Virus record (IMG/VR): IMGVR_UViG_3300045988_124546
Source of the DNA: a virus
DNA: 64,000 bases
Reading direction: 5' to 3' (one strand)
Position 1 is the first letter of the stretch. Each line of letters starts with the position of its first letter. Below are positions 4,489-52,011 of the stretch, piece by piece. The notes below the pieces were generated by a model. That model was not told where the DNA came from and did not search any database. It saw only the letters and a program-made list of their open reading frames with translations. Both the position numbers and the translations under genes were made by a program.

Positions 4489-7400
4489 TGGCTTCACAGT
4501 ATAGTATTTTAAGGCAATATGCCCCGTATGTTAGTCCTTACAACATAGATCTTGTTAAGGACGTCATGATGTACAAACAGCAGAAGGTTGATGCTGCTCG
4601 TGAAAAGATCTATACCCAGGTAGATTATCTTATGGGTCAAGAGATAGATAAGCCTGAAGCCCGCGCTTATATGGAGGATAAGATGTCAGGCGTGATTGCT
4701 AACATCAATCAAAAATTCAAAGGCGTGGATCTTTCTTCTGATGGTGTTACAAGAGCCATACAAGGAGAGATCAGTTCGGTGTTAGATGATACGGTCATTA
4801 ACGCGATTGCCGGCACAAAAGAAGGCAAGAGGGTTATGAAGGAAATAGAATCTATAAAACAGAATCATCCTGAACTTTATTCTCCTATTAATGAATGGCA
4901 TGCTTTGGACCCTTATTACAAATGGAGGTCAGATGGTAAAGCAGGATCAAGGTTGGGAGGTCTTCATTATTCTCCTTATGTCGATTATACTAAGGAGATA
5001 AATAAGCTGGTCAGTGATTTTAGGAAAAACAACGAAGGCAAGAAGATTCAGACAACAGAATATGATGTTAAAGGTAATCCTACTGGTGGAATCATAGAAG
5101 TCAACGTAGATGAGCTTACTGATTCCCAGATAAGGAATTTTGTGTCTGCTAACTTATCTGAAAACATGAGGAATCAGATGAGAATAGAAGCATCATACAT
5201 GGCAGCTACCAATCCGGTGTTCAGTAATCCGGATTTGGTTAGTCAATACATTGGGTCTTATGTCGAAAGATACGATAGGCACATAGGAGCATTGGAAGCA
5301 AAAAAGAAATCAGTAGGGGATAATAAGGATATTATTGATCGTATTGACAGTCAGATACAGGAAGCTAAAAATCAGAAAGCAGAAGCCAAGAGGGAGGCAG
5401 ATATGATAATAGCTTCATCAGATCCGGTAGCGGCTGCTAATTTTGTTGTTACCAATAATCTTTTCGATAAGATGACTGATGCATGGAGATACGACAATAC
5501 AAGTTTTGAAAGGAAGAAAGATGATCTTTATTTTGCAAGGTTGGCAGAGGATAGGGCTCAGCAAAAGTTTTTGACTGACAATGCCAAGTCTATGGTTGAA
5601 ATATCATTGGCGAATGAGCAGCTTGCTCAGGCTAAGATTGAAACCGAATACATGCGTACTTACGGTTCCAAGATGGGCACTGAAAGCTCATCCGGAGGCA
5701 CAAGAGGAACAGGCGGTGTAGGAGTGCCGATGGCTCCTATGGACGGGCCTACGGCTATCAATTCTGGAACGGGTAAGATAGGATCTGTTAATTTGGCTAA
5801 TATCCCTTATGAACAACTCACATCTTCTTCCACAGAGCGTAGAGCAAATTTATTGAAACTATATAATTCATTATCTCCTACAGACAGAAGTAATATCGTT
5901 GAAGCATCATACGAAGAAGAAAAAACTGACCCAGGATTGTATGCTAATATGACTCCTGAAGAACGGATATATTCTTATTTAAAAAATAATGGAGGTCAGA
6001 AAAACGGATATTTCGGACAAGGAAATAACAGATTGTCTGAAGCTTATGATGCTTTACTTCTTTCTGATTCTAAGGCAAATGGAGCTGCAAAGGCTATAAA
6101 TAACATAACTGATTATCAAATCGATAACATAGTTACTGAAAAAAATAAGGATATTATCAGGAAAGTTCGTAATGCTAAGTTTATGAAAGGAAATTCTTTT
6201 ATAAATCTTACCGATACAGATGATAAGGCTGGAGCCTTCCTGCTCGCCACAGCCATAACAACTGGTGTATCTGATGCCGTAGGGTTCAGAGAATACATGA
6301 TGGACCCTTCAAGAGGAATAGATATTCTTAGTGCTATATCTCCGTCATTAGGAGCTAAGGCGAGTGCCGGCAAGTTGGGGAAAAACATATCTGATGCTAT
6401 TACAAGCGAGAATAATGGTTCTTCTACTGGTACATTGGCTCTTATTAATGGAATGAAGAAACTCAACGGCGATCCTGATTTTAATATATCAGATTATATG
6501 ACCATAGATAAGGATGGTGATATAGATTTAAAAGATTATCAGGAAGGTGAACCATTAACTATTACCCAGCTAAGATATGCTGAGAAAAACAGTAGAGTGT
6601 CTGATATGATAGCAGGTCAGATGCAGGATGAGATAAAAATGTCTGTATCTCCTGATCAGATTTCTGATAAGTTATCTCAGTATCATTACCTTGATTCTTA
6701 CAAAAGATACAATTGGAATGCCGATTCACCGGAAAAGTCTTTGCAGAAGGCTCAGTTTAGAAGATTGTCTGGTTACATGGCAGGAAAGGTAAATAATCTG
6801 GATCCTACTGCTATTAATGCCATTAATATGGATGCCGAGATAGATAATGGCACTGTTAGAAGATTCTTGACTGCTCAAGTAGGTTCCGGTAAAAAGTCTT
6901 ATGTTACAGAAAGGGTTGAGATTACGAATGACGAGCTTCTTAAGGCGGGTATAGATCCTTCGGTCGAGGAGCGTAATTATCCGGTGGATGGTTACAAATC
7001 AAGTTTTGGAACCTGTGATTTTGTAGATACCGGAAAGAAGGAAGGTTATTCTTATGATAAGTATCTTATACGTAATGGTCTTCCCCGTTTGGCTTCTAAG
7101 GCTGATGTTAAGAATGATCTTTATGATATAGTAAAGGTTCATGGTTCTTATCTTAAGCCTGAGGAAATGAATGTTGTTAAAACCCTTGTTGATAATTTCA
7201 TTGATATGTCTGACAACATATCAGTTCAGTTGGAAGGAATGGATGACAGGGGTTCGAGAGAGGTAGCGGTCAATTTCTATGATAAAAGGACTAAAAATTC
7301 TAAAAATCCTGCATTGTTGTTCTCGGATTTTGTTCCTTTGGATCCGGGTAATGATGAGTATGCGGATTACTGGAATAACATTCACCAGAAGTGTCCTCAG

Positions 7401-19741: not shown

Positions 19742-20110
19742 ATGATAGTATATGATTTAAATTCAGGACACAGAGAATATCCTGGATATGACGAGATAGA
19801 AGACAGACGAGGTGGAGGCAGAGGCAGAAGCCGGCGTTCTGATGGGACGTACATGGGGTACGGTGGTGGTATTTACGACCATTACGGTATGCATGAGAAG
19901 ATGAAGGAAATGGAAGAACGCGAAAACGAGCTGGAAGAAAGGGAAAGAAGGCTTGAAGAGCGCGAACGTCGTCATGAAATGGAGGACCGGGAATACCGGA
20001 GGATGGGTTACGAATCCTACCCGATCGATTACTATGGAGACGACAGATACTACGGTGACGGGCCTCAGATGCGTAGAGGTCGCGGACGTGGCAGAGGTCG
20101 TTCTTATTGA
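19742..20110 (+). CDS. RG/RGG-, Tyr- and Glu/Arg-repeat-rich low-complexity protein (122 aa)
   Basis: Contains RGGGRGRSRR, ERENELEERERRLEERERRHEMEDREYRR and RRGRGRGRGRSY. The antisense 183-aa ORF is a mirror of this bias. Confidence 0.5.
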   Translation: MIVYDLNSGHREYPGYDEIEDRRGGGRGRSRRSDGTYMGYGGGIYDHYGMHEKMKEMEERENELEERERRLEERERRHEMEDREYRRMGYESYPIDYYGDDRYYGDGPQMRRGRGRGRGRSY

Positions 20111-21188: not shown

Positions 21189-21403
21189 CCGTAGAAGAGT
21201 TAGCCAGTAAAAGATACGGTGGTGAATTTGTTTTCATGTTTGGTCATCTTGAAGGTAGAACAAGATTCGTTTTTGAATGCTTTGATCCCAGGCCTGATCA
21301 CGAAGGTAAAAACACTTATATGGTTTCCTATTTTGAAAAGGAACTTCATGGAAGAGATGTGGTAGATGTGCCGTGTTATATGAATGTTTTGCCAAAATCA
21401 TGA
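21185..21403 (+). CDS. Hypothetical protein (72 aa), start overlaps upstream stop (ATGA)
   Basis: Translational coupling. Confidence 0.5.
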   Translation: MTVEELASKRYGGEFVFMFGHLEGRTRFVFECFDPRPDHEGKNTYMVSYFEKELHGRDVVDVPCYMNVLPKS

Positions 21404-21603
21404 AAACACTACTTTTAAATGTACCTGTATTTTCCGGTAAGATTATTTCTCCTATATGGATTAAGGCCGTAAGAGATTTTCAATCCAAATCCAAGTCAGA
21501 AAGAGACCTGTATTGTTCGATCTGTGGATGTGCAGGAGGGTGTAACTTGTGTAATAATATAAGTAAGTATAGGATTTCAGAACAATTAAAATATTACAAA
21601 TAA
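21373..21603 (+). CDS. Hypothetical Cys-containing small protein (76 aa)
   Basis: ORF overlapping neighbours by a few nt. Confidence 0.4.
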   Translation: MLYECFAKIMKTLLLNVPVFSGKIISPIWIKAVRDFQSKSKSERDLYCSICGCAGGCNLCNNISKYRISEQLKYYK

Positions 21604-21881
21604 TGGAATTAAAAGATTTTAAAGATGTAATTAGAATGATGACAAAAGAAGAGTTCGAATCAACAATTGAAGAAGATATTAAATTCGTTGAAGGATTCAA
21701 GTATTTCTTAAGACATGATGATGCTACAAGGATAGTGGAACACATCAAGTCCGTGTTAGAAGCATCAGTGGACTACTATTATCCTAATCATCCTAAACCT
21801 GAAGCAGAACCAGGAGACATGGGAGAAGTTTCTGATGGATACCACACTTTCAATATCCGAAATAACATTAAAACAATATAA
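21603..21881 (+). CDS. Hypothetical protein (92 aa)
   Basis: ORF. Last gene before the IscB element. Confidence 0.5.
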   Translation: MELKDFKDVIRMMTKEEFESTIEEDIKFVEGFKYFLRHDDATRIVEHIKSVLEASVDYYYPNHPKPEAEPGDMGEVSDGYHTFNIRNNIKTI

Positions 21882-21884
21882 TTT

Positions 21885-22140
21885 CATTATAAGGTTTTAA
21901 TGTACCAGAAATGGTCCGGATATTAGCCTAAGCCTTGAAACGAAGGCTACGTTATTTGAGAATATATAGTTACCTACGGATGTTTACCCAAGTCTGTAGC
22001 TCTAAGGCAAGCGATTAAACAGGAGTAGTGTATTTGCGAAACAGTGTTGCTTGCATCAAAACCTCTTATAACATTGGCGATGGGTACTAACAGGATGAAA
22101 TATTCCTGACTTATGTTGAATAAACATTGAAAACGTTTGT
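21885..22140 (+). ncRNA. Candidate omega RNA (guide RNA scaffold) of the downstream IscB nuclease
   Basis: ~245-nt region with no ORF directly 5' of, and overlapping, the iscB start, which is where IscB omega RNAs are encoded. Contains stem-loops, e.g. agcctt-gaaacg-aaggct (21931-21948) and gcaagc...gcttgc (around 22005-22050). Confidence 0.45.
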
Positions 22141-23365
22141 AGATATGGTGTACGTACAGGATATAAATGGTAAACCTATGATGCCTACAACAAGGCATGG
22201 AAAGGTTAGGAGACTGCTTAAAGAAAACAAGGCAGTTGTTGTAAACCTATGTCCGTTTACCATCAAATTAATGTACGTAACATCCGATTACAAACAAGAA
22301 ATTGTGTTAGGCGTTGATGCTGGAGCTAAACATGTTGGTTTATCAGCAACGACGAAAAGCAAAGAGCTTTACAGCAGTGAAGTTATTCTTAGAAATGATA
22401 TCGTAGATCTTTTATCTACAAGAAGAGAGTCAAGAAGGGTGAGGAGGAATAGATTGAGATATAGAAAACCTCGTTTTGACAACAGGGTAAAAAGCAAGCG
22501 TCCAGGATGGGTAGCACCTTCGGTGAAGTACAAAATAGACGCCCATATTCGTGTTATTGACAATGTATGTTCTATATTACCAATATCTCGTATTGTTATT
22601 GAAGTAGCTCAATTTGATACTCAGAAGATTAACAATCCTGAAATATCAGGTAAAGAATATCAGGAAGGAGATCAACTTGGTTTTTGGAACACAAGGGAGT
22701 ATGTTTTAGCAAGGGATGGGCATAAATGTCAGTATTGTAAAGGAAAATCGAAATCCAAAATCCTTAATGTTCATCACATTGAATCCCGAAAAACGGGAGG
22801 TGATTCCCCTTCTAATCTTATTACCTTATGTGAAACTTGTCACAAAGAATACCATAAAGGTAATATAGATTTGAAGATCAAACGGGGATCGTCGCTTCGC
22901 GACGCGGCCGTAATGGGAATTATGAAATGGAGGTTGTATGAAGAGTTAAAATCCAGATACGACAGAGTTTTTATGACGTTTGGTTACATTACGAAACATA
23001 ATCGGATTAAATACGGGATTGAAAAATCCCATACATCCGACGCGTTTGTCATTTCTATGAACATTAATGCGAAACGAATCGAACGTCAATATTTAAAACG
23101 TTTAATTCGTAGACATAATAGACAAATACATAAAATGAAAATTTTAAAAGGAGGAAAGAAGAAAAACAATCAAGCTCCTTTTGAGGTTTTCGGATTTAGA
23201 TTGTTTGATAAAGTGTTGTATAACAATAAAATATTCTTTGTTTATGGAAGGAGAAAATCAGGGAATTTCAATATCAGGGATTTCAACGGAGAAAACCCGA
23301 AGGATGTTTCACGCAAAAAGTTTAAACTCATTAGAGGTAAGAGGCATCCGATTATATTAAAGTAA
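22127..23365 (+). CDS. iscB: IscB-family RNA-guided nuclease (OMEGA system; PLMP domain, RuvC-I, Arg-rich bridge helix, RuvC-II, HNH, RuvC-III, C-terminal TI-like domain); 412 aa, possible alternative start at 22145
   Basis: Motifs read from translation: NGKPMMPTTRHGKVRRLLKENKAVVV...PFTIKL (PLMP); LGVDAGAKHVGLS (RuvC-I, D64); TRRESRRVRRNRLRYRKPRFDNRVKSKRPGW (bridge helix); IVIEVAQFD (RuvC-II, E159); CQYC...NVHHIE...NLITLCETCH (HNH with CxxC...CxxC); SHTSDAFVIS (RuvC-III, H302/D305); GFRLFDKVLYNNKIFFVYGRRKSGNFNIRDFNG (C-terminal domain). Confidence 0.85.
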   Translation: MKTFVDMVYVQDINGKPMMPTTRHGKVRRLLKENKAVVVNLCPFTIKLMYVTSDYKQEIVLGVDAGAKHVGLSATTKSKELYSSEVILRNDIVDLLSTRRESRRVRRNRLRYRKPRFDNRVKSKRPGWVAPSVKYKIDAHIRVIDNVCSILPISRIVIEVAQFDTQKINNPEISGKEYQEGDQLGFWNTREYVLARDGHKCQYCKGKSKSKILNVHHIESRKTGGDSPSNLITLCETCHKEYHKGNIDLKIKRGSSLRDAAVMGIMKWRLYEELKSRYDRVFMTFGYITKHNRIKYGIEKSHTSDAFVISMNINAKRIERQYLKRLIRRHNRQIHKMKILKGGKKKNNQAPFEVFGFRLFDKVLYNNKIFFVYGRRKSGNFNIRDFNGENPKDVSRKKFKLIRGKRHPIILK

Positions 23366-23402
23366 ATGAACGGATTTAATAAATTTAATAGAAAAACGTA
23401 TC

Positions 23403-23708
23403 ATGTATAATAAAGAAATCGTGATATGCGCGGCCATCTGGGTACAGGATGACAAGAAACGTCCCTATCAGCCCACCAATATACCATCCGGCACCGTGTT
23501 CTGTGGATTGAGACACCCCTCTATACTATCTCAACTTGCGGCATACGGTATAGCCCATAAGAACCGTAGTGTTCAAGGATTTTTGTCAAGCAAGAATCGG
23601 TTTCTAACAAGAGAGGAAGCATCTGAACTTGTTAAGAGCAATAATCAGGAAATGGTAGTAGATAGGAGTGCCATTAGAGAACAATTGTATTCAGAAGATC
23701 TATATTAA
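23403..23708 (+). CDS. Hypothetical protein (101 aa)
   Basis: ORF immediately downstream of iscB. Confidence 0.5.
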   Translation: MYNKEIVICAAIWVQDDKKRPYQPTNIPSGTVFCGLRHPSILSQLAAYGIAHKNRSVQGFLSSKNRFLTREEASELVKSNNQEMVVDRSAIREQLYSEDLY

Positions 23709-40056: not shown

Positions 40057-41076
40057 TCATCGTTTTATCTTTTTAGACGGATCCCAATCCGAAGAGAAAG
40101 GGCATTCGTTTTTGTTATGTAATCCAAAGTCACAATAATAACACAGTGCTGACGGGCAGGGCAGCCTGTTTTGCGGAACAGGCTGACTTAGGGTGGCGCG
40201 CCGCTTGCTATACCTGGCTCCTTCTGCTCCCTGGATGTACGCTTGAAATGATTTTACACTATTATCTTCAAAATCATACATTTTAGATAAAGTGTCATTT
40301 AGCATCTCTATAGATTTTGTTTTACGTTCCTCATCCACTTTAACCTTTTGGTATTGTCTGGTCCTGGTAAAGAAATAGATGTTCATATCTGGCAGAACTC
40401 CACCATATTTTCTATAGATGTAAAACGAATATATAGGATGCTGTAAATTCGTTTCCAACTTCTTAGAATCAAAAACCTTATTACCTGATTTCCAATCTAT
40501 GACATAATGGTGAACTACGTTCTTGCTCTTTATAGCCAGATGAAGATCTACCGATCCTACTATGTACACATGTGTATGAACGTCACCATTTATATCAACA
40601 GGCTTAGGAAGACGGTACGGCAGCACAAAATCTTCTTCGACTCCAACTATGGCGCCGTGTCTGATAAGTTTCTCGCAGGGATTAAGATCACTATCAGCTA
40701 TCATAAACCTATTCCCGTCTTTTTTGAACAGATCCACAATCCAAGCAAGAAGTTCCCCAGATTGCTTCATGGCTATCATCATATTTTCCGGTGATTGCCA
40801 AGGTATGTCCTCCTGGTAAGCATAGTAACTTATTGCTTCTCCAAGGTCTTTACCAGAAGGCTGTCTTCCGTTCTTAAAGAAGTATTCCAGTGTCTTATGG
40901 ATAACCGTACCATAGGATGTAGCTTCTTGTTTTTCCGTAGACCTTTTGCCCTCCACGTAAGTCTTATACCATTTCATTGGACAGGTAAGAAACGTATCTA
41001 TCTGGGAATAAGATATGGCAAGACGTTTTACACCATTAAACTCCTTATATAGCAAATGCGTTTCCGGGACCATCAT
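40057..41076 (-). CDS. Cas4-like PD-(D/E)XK exonuclease with 4Fe-4S-type Cys cluster
   Basis: N-terminal TCPMKWY motif, central VIDWKSGNK (D-x-K), C-terminal CPSALCYYCDFGLHNKNECPF cysteine cluster, as in Cas4/RecB-family nucleases. Confidence 0.6.
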   Translation of the reverse strand: MMVPETHLLYKEFNGVKRLAISYSQIDTFLTCPMKWYKTYVEGKRSTEKQEATSYGTVIHKTLEYFFKNGRQPSGKDLGEAISYYAYQEDIPWQSPENMMIAMKQSGELLAWIVDLFKKDGNRFMIADSDLNPCEKLIRHGAIVGVEEDFVLPYRLPKPVDINGDVHTHVYIVGSVDLHLAIKSKNVVHHYVIDWKSGNKVFDSKKLETNLQHPIYSFYIYRKYGGVLPDMNIYFFTRTRQYQKVKVDEERKTKSIEMLNDTLSKMYDFEDNSVKSFQAYIQGAEGARYSKRRATLSQPVPQNRLPCPSALCYYCDFGLHNKNECPFSSDWDPSKKIKR

Positions 41077-51724: not shown

Positions 51725-51735
51725 TGTATTAATAT

Positions 51736-52011
51736 TTAATTAGTTGATTTCTTTCCTTTCTCTATACTATTTTTAAATCTTTCAGAACACCACTGCAAAA
51801 CATCCATCATCATCATCTCATTATTAGATAAGATGCCTTTTATAATTAACGCCAATTGATGCTGTGACATTCTTAGGCTCATATCAAATCTTCTTTCCTC
51901 TTCATTTACTATCGTGGCTACGAAATACTTACACCCCTCTAAGTGCGTCAGGGCTTCAATCATAGCTTCTTTTATCTCTTTTTCTTCCATTCTGTTTGTT
52001 TTTTTGGACAA
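51736..52011 (-). CDS. Hypothetical protein (91 aa)
   Basis: ORF. Confidence 0.5.
   Translation of the reverse strand: MSKKTNRMEEKEIKEAMIEALTHLEGCKYFVATIVNEEERRFDMSLRMSQHQLALIIKGILSNNEMMMMDVLQWCSERFKNSIEKGKKSTN

Follow-up and report, generated by a model that had tools for sequence, protein, structure and literature searches.

A transposase-less IscB–omegaRNA element in an epsilon crAss-like phage and its probable spread between co-infecting phages

What does an RNA-guided nuclease of the IscB family do in the genome of a phage? IscB is the ancestor of Cas9 and, to our knowledge, what has been demonstrated of its natural role is the maintenance of transposons, in bacteria and plasmids only. 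The question is raised by the IMG/VR virus record IMGVR_UViG_3300045988_124546, of which a stretch of 64,000 nucleotides (the window) was analysed here and in which a preliminary description, made from the letters alone, had noticed an IscB gene. The window belongs to an epsilon crAss-like phage, and these phages form one of the most abundant groups in the human gut. A literature search on IscB in crAss-like phages returned mostly noise and no paper linking the two. [quoted passage not shown] Judging from the comparison of many related genomes, it is probably an active selfish element, spreading between co-infecting phages through RNA-guided cutting and recombinational repair. The presence of an IscB in a phage is in itself ordinary; the interest lies in the target rule at the population level, the start-codon target-adjacent motif (TAM), the alleles that replace genes and the nested guides.

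The window is identical to ENA ERZ28575749 scaffold_85 (145,864 bp) and shows 92–96% nucleotide identity to phage crAssE-Sib (OR575929.1), described as an epsilon crAss-like phage (PMC11054128). Members of the epsilon group have ~150-kb genomes, form the deepest branch of the crAss-like assemblage and include Cellulophaga phage phi17:2 (PMC7886860). The crAss-like attribution made in the preliminary description is therefore upheld, on the basis of nucleotide similarity to crAssE-Sib and the literature. A structural open reading frame (ORF) of 2,213 amino acids (aa) in the window matches phi4:1 and phi17:2, and two ORFs of 2,100–2,200 aa had no match among the PDB sequences. Neither an IscB nor a Y1 transposase is annotated in the crAssE-Sib record, and the corresponding paper reports two TnpB genes and does not mention IscB (PMC11054128).

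Comparison with crAssE-Sib gives the boundaries of the element, which is 1,550 bp long and consists of the omegaRNA scaffold, iscB and a 37-nt tail. Homology runs to window position 21852–21854 and resumes at the ATG at 23403, the counterpart of which is position 6002 of the crAssE-Sib locus (L001). At the left junction GGATACCACACTTTCA is followed by ATATCCG in the window, and GGATACCATACTTTCA is followed by ATGAATTG in crAssE-Sib. In place of the element, crAssE-Sib has 778 bp, containing the last two thirds of a gene with WDGH and Tad2-like (Thoeris anti-defence 2-like) domains and a 91-aa ORF. The intact gene (L001 4971–5726, 251 aa) has the WDGH domain at residues 75–177 and the Tad2-like domain at 186–249 (Pfam). 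Window positions 21581–21854 match its start (L001 4949–5225, blastn), and the remnant in the window retains neither domain (Pfam), both having been lost. The remnant and the element point the same way, so that transcripts reading through from the former would provide the omegaRNA with its 5' guide.

The scaffold was recognized as a full-length match to the HEARO RNA (Rfam RF02033) at 21853–22091 of the plus strand (99.3 bits, gathering score 83, model positions 1–211), the only such match in the window; the preliminary description had presumed an upstream RNA and had not located it. The minimum free energy of the omegaRNA corresponds to a z-score of -3.3, and an alignment of 33 distinct family scaffolds yielded 39 consensus pairs, nine of them with compensatory changes. 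A total of 343 relatives were found in IMG/VR, and the best 79 of these (80–100% aa identity), mostly on contigs of 80–160 kb, were compared for context. Nearly all of them have a HEARO omegaRNA directly upstream of iscB, with a scaffold start of either AT-ATCCG, in type A, or AT-AATCG, in type B. What lies 5' of the scaffold varies with the genomic context, of which clustering of the flanks distinguished about 14, so the element has been mobile to many sites. Every element has the orientation of its flanking genes, as transcription of a guide requires. The position of the guide is fixed by these data, homology to crAssE-Sib stopping at the border between guide and scaffold, and its length, 16 nt, is assumed from characterised IscBs. 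The 16-mer occurs once in the window and has no second match there.

We compared the occupied sites of the relatives with uninterrupted references, namely crAssE-Sib, the window itself and other loci. In all 15 independent sites, the 16–20 nt that precede the scaffold are followed by ATG in the uninterrupted sequence. The distal end behaves alike: the iscB stop codon is followed by a conserved tail of 23–37 nt and then always by an ATG, in 13 of 13 contexts, at which the next phage gene, in the same orientation, nearly always starts. The 37-nt form of the tail is kept in type-A copies across different contexts, and the empty sites align again from the ATG that follows it. The ATG rule thus holds in 28 of 28 cases, with position 4 never C. 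The frequency of ATG is 0.0196 per position, and the chance of 15 out of 15 is about 2e-26. From this we infer that the TAM is ATG(D); the guide match beside ATG at all 15 empty sites suggests RNA-guided, TAM-dependent cleavage of double-stranded DNA. Self and target differ at one base only, the scaffold starting with ATA where the target has ATG. At five sites, including the start codon of the portal gene, the element is simply inserted, without duplication, directly 5' of a single ATG, and others, that of the window among them, are ATG-to-ATG replacements of 167–778 bp. Two family target sites in crAssE-Sib (L001 5607, and OR575929.1 ~130581 on the minus strand) have the adjacent ATG changed to ATA and ACG, respectively; such alleles may resist cutting by IscB.

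Targets of the window-type guide are in wide circulation. The occupied junction (guide and scaffold) was found in four IMG/VR contigs, and the uninterrupted target, continuing into ATGAATTG (guide, then ATGAAT), in at least 120 related ones. Among 80 of the latter that were compared, 42 match the guide at 16 of 16 positions and 38 have a single-base difference; the locus is free of an element in at least 35, and nine carry one at a junction further downstream. The window locus is accordingly polymorphic for presence and absence, crAssE-Sib representing the element-free allele. The window, in turn, holds five intact targets for guides of relatives (at most one mismatch, then ATG; Table 1). L050-type phages have the element at the L050-type target, replacing window positions 51725–51990.

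Table 1. Features of the IscB–omegaRNA element, its flanks and the targets of relatives' guides in the window
Feature	Position	Strand	Remarks
Remnant of the WDGH + Tad2-like gene (first ~83 codons)	21603–21852	+	ORF continues into scaffold to 21881
Inferred 16-nt guide, GGATACCACACTTTCA	21837–21852	+	Directly 5' of scaffold start
omegaRNA scaffold (HEARO)	21853–22108	+	Begins AT-ATCCG; conserved hairpin 22091–22108 at end
iscB coding sequence	22145–23365	+	406 aa, ATG start; domain order PLMP/RRXRR, RuvC-I, bridge helix, RuvC-II, HNH, RuvC-III, C-terminal beta domain
Conserved 37-nt tail, distal element end (left end in transposase orientation)	23366–23402	+	No significant hairpin
ATG abutting the element: TAM-type motif and start codon of next phage gene (101 aa)	23403–23405	+
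Target of L021/L006-type guide	21220–21238	+	1 mismatch, then ATGTTT
Target of L023-type guide	21384–21402	+	1 mismatch, then ATGAAA
Target of L020-type guide	40058–40076	-	16/16, then ATGAAA
Target of L052-type guide	51903–51921	-	1 mismatch, then ATGAAG
Target of L050-type guide	51988–52006	-	16/16, then ATGGAA

The gene had been described as an ORF of 412 aa. This ORF does exist in the ORF listing of the window, at 22127–23365 (+) with a TTG start, but about 8,000 homologues, including the exact window protein in public collections, are 406 aa long and begin at the ATG at 22145; the N-terminus of the close homologues is MVYVQD. The coding sequence is therefore that of Table 1, and the earlier residue numbers are six too high. 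The catalytic residues are D58, E153, H210/H211 and H296/D299 in the 406-aa numbering; the 412-aa numbering is used below. Profile searches identified the RRXRR domain (PF14239) at residues 8–181 of 412, over the full profile (E 1.5e-59) and with PMMP as its motif, and the HNH domain at residues 201–244 (E 1e-10). The NCBIfam equivalog NF040563, guided_IscB, scored 356.5 bits against a cut-off of 175. A phmmer search of the PDB sequences retrieved IscB chains including OgeuIscB (E ~4e-45), in which D64 aligns with D61 and E159 with E193 of OgeuIscB, HH216/217 pairs with the His-His of the HNH domain, and H302/D305 with the H/D of RuvC-III of the PDB IscBs. The RuvC and HNH residues and the four zinc cysteines are unchanged in 70 of 70 full-length relatives (C201, C204, C235, C238, H216, H217 and N230 constituting the HNH and zinc set).

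Structure prediction gave the same picture. An AlphaFold2 model built from 94 diverse relatives, collected by a profile search, reached a predicted local distance difference test (pLDDT) score of 73.3 and a predicted TM-score of 0.70; an earlier alignment of 20 sequences (87–96% identical) had given a pLDDT of 34. Of the ten PDB structures that best match the model in Foldseek, nine are complexes of IscB and that at rank 8 (8dmb_P) is one of IsrB; their E values are 5e-24 to 8e-14 and their query TM-scores (TMq) 0.50–0.62. The best is 8csz_D (E 5e-24, TMq 0.59), followed by 9liq, 9nvu, 7utn, 7xht and 9k30, and Cas9d comes after these ten. Both the profile search and the structure prediction that the preliminary description had proposed thus agree with its claim of a complete IscB, with the hallmark domains in order and intact RuvC and HNH residues. 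The conserved C-terminal domain that it described also stands: the last ~75 residues are beta-rich (GFRLFDKV...GRRxSGxF), common to the clade and its bacterial relatives, and modelled at pLDDT 87–89.

In public databases the exact window protein is labelled 'hypothetical protein', and its nearest named relative 'RRXRR protein [Bacteriophage sp.]'. PHROG 119 ('HNH endonuclease') matches the window IscB with an E value of 1.4e-65, which implies that IscB-like genes are common in phages but unrecognised by annotation. An NCBI protein of 520 aa (P0001), 94% identical to the window IscB across 75% of its length, is possibly a fusion or a start mis-called across a junction.

The protein collection contained about 8,000 related clusters. 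In a comparison with one genome per bacterial species, the closest matches in bacterial assemblies were 88% identical, in Vibrio olivae, and 69%, in a Phocaeicola metagenome-assembled genome (6.9-kb contig); the remainder, from Sutterella, Syntrophomonas, Lachnospiraceae and others, were at most 59% identical. The Vibrio sequence (NZ_JBHMEP010000019.1, V. olivae CECT 8064) is a 20-kb contig with crAss-like structural genes, 65% identical to the capsid region of crAssE-Sib, and is probably a phage contig or contamination, not Vibrio DNA. By sequence identity the clade is phage-resident, its nearest bacterial relatives being at most 59–69% identical.

Seventy of 80 copies of the gene are full length, all seventy with the same amino acids at 12 catalytic or zinc positions. 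For pairs of copies from different contexts, the ratio of nonsynonymous to synonymous substitution rates (dN/dS) has a median of 0.12 (range 0.05–0.21), and on this measure the copies are under purifying selection. The other ten are truncated or disrupted, and in three elements (L013, L014 and L025) the omegaRNA is missing in part or altogether. Copies of both kinds, apparently active and decaying, are to be expected from the life cycle of a homing element. The copies also recombine frequently, as is evident from chimeric omegaRNAs in L006, L019 and L079, which have a type-B 5' part and a type-A remainder, or the reverse, and from L002, the IscB protein of which is 100% identical to that of the window and the omegaRNA 95%, with the differences clustered in one hairpin. 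The identical window protein occurs in nine public contigs. Four of these end inside the omegaRNA, 86 nt (L232, L233 and L235) or 60 nt (L234) before iscB, which suggests assembly breaks from junction alleles or copies co-existing in a sample.

Some phages carry two copies of the element, and in four contigs these are at distant loci. In some phages a second, full iscB lies a few kilobases from the first in the same orientation (L026:10210–11427, L056:12538–13200 and L073:12579–13199). Mini-elements of about 380 nt without iscB occur in at least three contexts (L020:3995–4385, L012:1114–1510, L045:609–1005 and L080:9452–9850), and none was found in the window. In each, a scaffold variant (starting with ATAACCCCAAATAG) is joined through a short GC hairpin linker to a tail resembling that of type A, and the next gene's ATG comes after it. 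Their make-up suggests derivatives of the miniature inverted-repeat or palindrome-associated transposable element type (MITE/PATE) that could use IscB in trans.

The spread of the element may be pictured as follows. Read-through transcription from the upstream phage genes would yield an omegaRNA with the phage flank, GGATACCACACTTTCA, as its 5' end and the HEARO scaffold as its body. IscB, with its RuvC and HNH domains, would then cut co-infecting related genomes that hold the 16-mer followed by ATG, in this case inside the intact WDGH and Tad2-like gene, and would spare its own copy because there the 16-mer precedes the ATA of the scaffold, not ATG. Repair of the break by recombination with an element-bearing genome would copy the element in, here with the replacement of 778 bp. 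We infer the cleavage and the homing from sequence comparison, and the targets, the ATG rule and the empty alleles strongly support the homing or self-propagating role that the preliminary description had put forward.

Several observations weigh against this reading. The window allele is a replacement, with 778 bp lost, and not a simple insertion, and a search of IMG/VR for a simple insertion at the window target (tail, then ATGAATTGTAT) gave no match. The window-type allele is rare (four contigs) and so has not swept, and identity between distal flanks and elements is too mosaic to give a clean signal of co-conversion. No Y1 TnpA was found by tblastn in the window, the 79 locus flanks or the bacterial loci, in a weak search with three seed sequences. 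About 98% of iscB genes have no nearby tnpA (Meers et al. 2023, PMC10055086), so its absence does not exclude membership of the IS200/IS605-type family. The omegaRNA-side end forms a strong hairpin (z -7.1 and -5.5 in the two element types) and the distal end none (z +0.1 and +1.3), so that canonical IS200/IS605 mobilisation is putative. Finally, no similarity between the sequence of the C-terminal domain and the TAM-interacting domains of solved IscBs could be detected: searched alone, the last 87 aa matched no IscB in the PDB, and the alignment of a 15-sequence full-length profile to a PDB IscB ended at about profile position 335, with the C-terminus outside it. The ATG fixed beside the targets implies that a TAM is read.

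How do other explanations fare with the same data? The element might be a classical non-autonomous IS200/IS605 element, in which IscB is only 'restorative', re-cutting the donor joint after excision by TnpA, and in which passage between phages is a matter of recombination or descent. Precise, duplication-free insertions beside a motif equal to the TAM are as in Meers et al., and most iscB genes have no nearby tnpA (PMC10055086). We nevertheless regard this as unlikely, given that the weak search of the phage data found no TnpA, that the left end has no hairpin and that alleles which replace genes, as in the window, cannot be 'restored' donor joints. Moreover, where many genomes of a lytic phage replicate side by side, this enzyme would necessarily cut co-infecting genomes free of the element as well, and such genomes are abundant and have exact targets. 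Somewhat less likely still is a nuclease co-opted as a phage weapon, the main selected effect of which is the exclusion of competitors. Guides do match sequences in many related phages, and intron-encoded and free-standing endonucleases are known to act in this way (review), but the element has a patchy distribution over about 14 different places and has decayed in some genomes, its guide is whichever flank adjoins it and not a dedicated spacer, and in the window it has destroyed a Tad2-like, anti-defence-type gene. Patchiness, a guide taken from the landing site and gene loss are hallmarks of a selfish element, and the two readings are not exclusive. Competition between phages, also suggested beforehand, is therefore a likely by-product and is not shown as a co-opted function.

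That the window copy is an inactive relic, intact by chance or through recent arrival, seems to us very improbable. The rarity of its junction (four contigs) and the decayed copies among its relatives would fit, whereas the full-length ORF, identical in nine contigs, the intact catalytic residues in a family under purifying selection, the omegaRNA that covers the full model above the gathering score, and the exact targets with ATG in circulation would not. We give hardly any credence to an HNH homing endonuclease without RNA guidance, or to the genome of the bacterial host as the target, although public labels ('HNH endonuclease', 'RRXRR protein', 'hypothetical protein') would suit the former; the protein is an IscB by equivalog, has a split RuvC and a fold that matches IscB complexes, and adjoins a HEARO RNA. 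Targeting of the host genome, proposed in the preliminary description, is without support and was rejected, as the guide is the phage's own Tad2-like flank and matches nothing else in the window. Spread by homing between co-infecting phages is thus the explanation that we prefer.

The junctions at the window locus add a further aspect. All copies at this locus have one right junction, the tail followed by ATGTATAAT, and their left junctions occupy at least 12 positions across about 1.1 kb of the crAssE-Sib reference. Ten of these directly precede an ATG in uninterrupted genomes, and two are 4-nt deletion derivatives. A second locus has the same nested pattern, with further deletions of 6–25 nt abutting the scaffold. 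Elements L010 and L008 are 100% identical over 1,540 nt and differ in their left junctions, and the window and L230 have an identical protein and different left junctions; junctions therefore change in place and recently. Deletions of 4–25 nt in L004, L007/L009, L005, L059, L063 and L073 take away the 3' region of the guide and reach precisely to the start of the scaffold, and in the ancestral sequence no ATG adjoins them; imprecise repair during homing and cleavage at the element end are candidate causes. The 157 bp at window positions 21424–21580, where crAssE-Sib has 10 bp, make up most of a 76-aa Cys-rich ORF (21373–21603), and some relatives have their IscB junction inside this insert.

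The nested junctions raise the possibility, which we put forward tentatively and with more doubt than conviction, that this IscB lineage is a natural RNA-guided gene drive that renews its own guide among epsilon crAss-like phages. If the nuclease is active, an allele with an upstream junction can cut every allele that retains that site, and it is immune to the downstream guides because their targets are deleted in it. The origin of new junctions could be threefold. The scaffold end together with a CAT/ATG site close by may be the substrate of a Y1 transposase. Two insertions may be followed by recombination between the copies, and the chimeric type A/B elements mentioned above indicate that copies do recombine; the zero matches to a simple insertion leave this route to the replacement allele unsupported. 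Random deletions may also occur, of which only ATG-adjacent ones home and become visible. The formation of new junctions by IscB alone, by end joining at a cut 3 bp from the TAM, was rejected, the junctions lying at the TAM boundary and not at -3. Insertion takes place 5' of ATG (3' of CAT on the other strand) with no target duplication or terminal inverted repeats, and new sites are most naturally ascribed to a Y1 transposase in trans, since the insertions are precise, duplication-free and beside a fixed short motif.

OgeuIscB and its relatives (7xht, 7utn, 8csz and 9liq) have the same domain order, catalytic residues and overall fold as the window IscB, and like it use a large 5' omegaRNA (HEARO) with a guide that is the flank 5' of the scaffold. 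The window protein is shorter, 406 aa against about 496 aa in the OgeuIscB type, with ~30 residues fewer after the bridge helix (an alignment gap), and it differs in the CxxC...CxxC zinc site of its HNH domain, in a C-terminus that is not sequence-alignable and in its residence in phages. The TAM of the OgeuIscB type is NWRRNA, different from the ATG(D) proposed here. GstIscB of ISGst (Geobacillus) is the only transposon-borne IscB with dissected biology: its scaffold derives from the transposon end and its guide lies outside, its TAM reads TTCAT in the orientation of the transposase and ATGAA on the strand of iscB, and its elements are mobilised by the TnpA of the same genome, with IscB re-cutting the donor joint (PMC10055086). 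Both systems have the guide outside the scaffold-forming end, co-orientation with upstream genes and no tnpA in cis, and in both the TAM is the transposon target motif, ATGAA there fitting ATG(A/T/G) here. In contrast, the window element has no known TnpA and no distal hairpin, and its likely targets are other phage genomes.

The free-standing homing genes of T4-like phages (SegF, SegB and Mob), known for 'intronless homing' and 'marker exclusion', also lie between phage genes and are present or absent among close relatives, and the predicted result, conversion of the rival allele and its flanking DNA, is alike (review). Unlike these, the window element would recognize its target by RNA, so that each new junction is a new specificity, and self and non-self would be told apart by ATA or ATG at the guide match, not by polymorphism in a protein-recognised site. 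Homing into co-infecting phages has been termed 'non-restorative homing' in a 2026 review, in which it is theoretical for phages (PMC13565253). The TnpB genes of crAssE-Sib (PMC11054128) are likewise OMEGA RNA-guided, patchy in the same phage group and without a transposase; TnpB is of another family, with RuvC only and a 3' omegaRNA. With Cas9 the window IscB has the RuvC–HNH architecture in common, and it weakly resembles Cas9d and other compact Cas9s in structure and sequence (the NCBIfam Cas9d model scores 13 bits against a cut-off of 375). It has no recognition (REC) lobe, adaptation genes or nearby CRISPR array, no CRISPR repeat array being found within 5 kb of iscB, and it has a single, flank-derived guide. 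Elsewhere in the window, positions 19742–20110 encode a low-complexity ORF of 122 aa with RGG/RGR runs and an ERE/RRxE repeat (21-nt tandem repeat at 19911–19966).

For the biology of these phages, the locus offers hundreds of natural occupied and empty alleles from which the target rule, 16 nt and ATG, can be read directly. It provides a test bed for OMEGA nucleases as virus-to-virus gene drives, for the acquisition of guides with no transposase in sight, and for the cost to the phage, here the loss of a Tad2-like gene. The small enzyme (406 aa) with its short inferred TAM would also be attractive for genome editing, if active. Were the lineage a drive that renews its guide, it would be a one-way ratchet, spreading by homing and eroding accessory genes, here a Tad2-like gene of the anti-defence type, and the iscB-less mini-elements of omegaRNA and tail would hitch-hike on IscB in trans.

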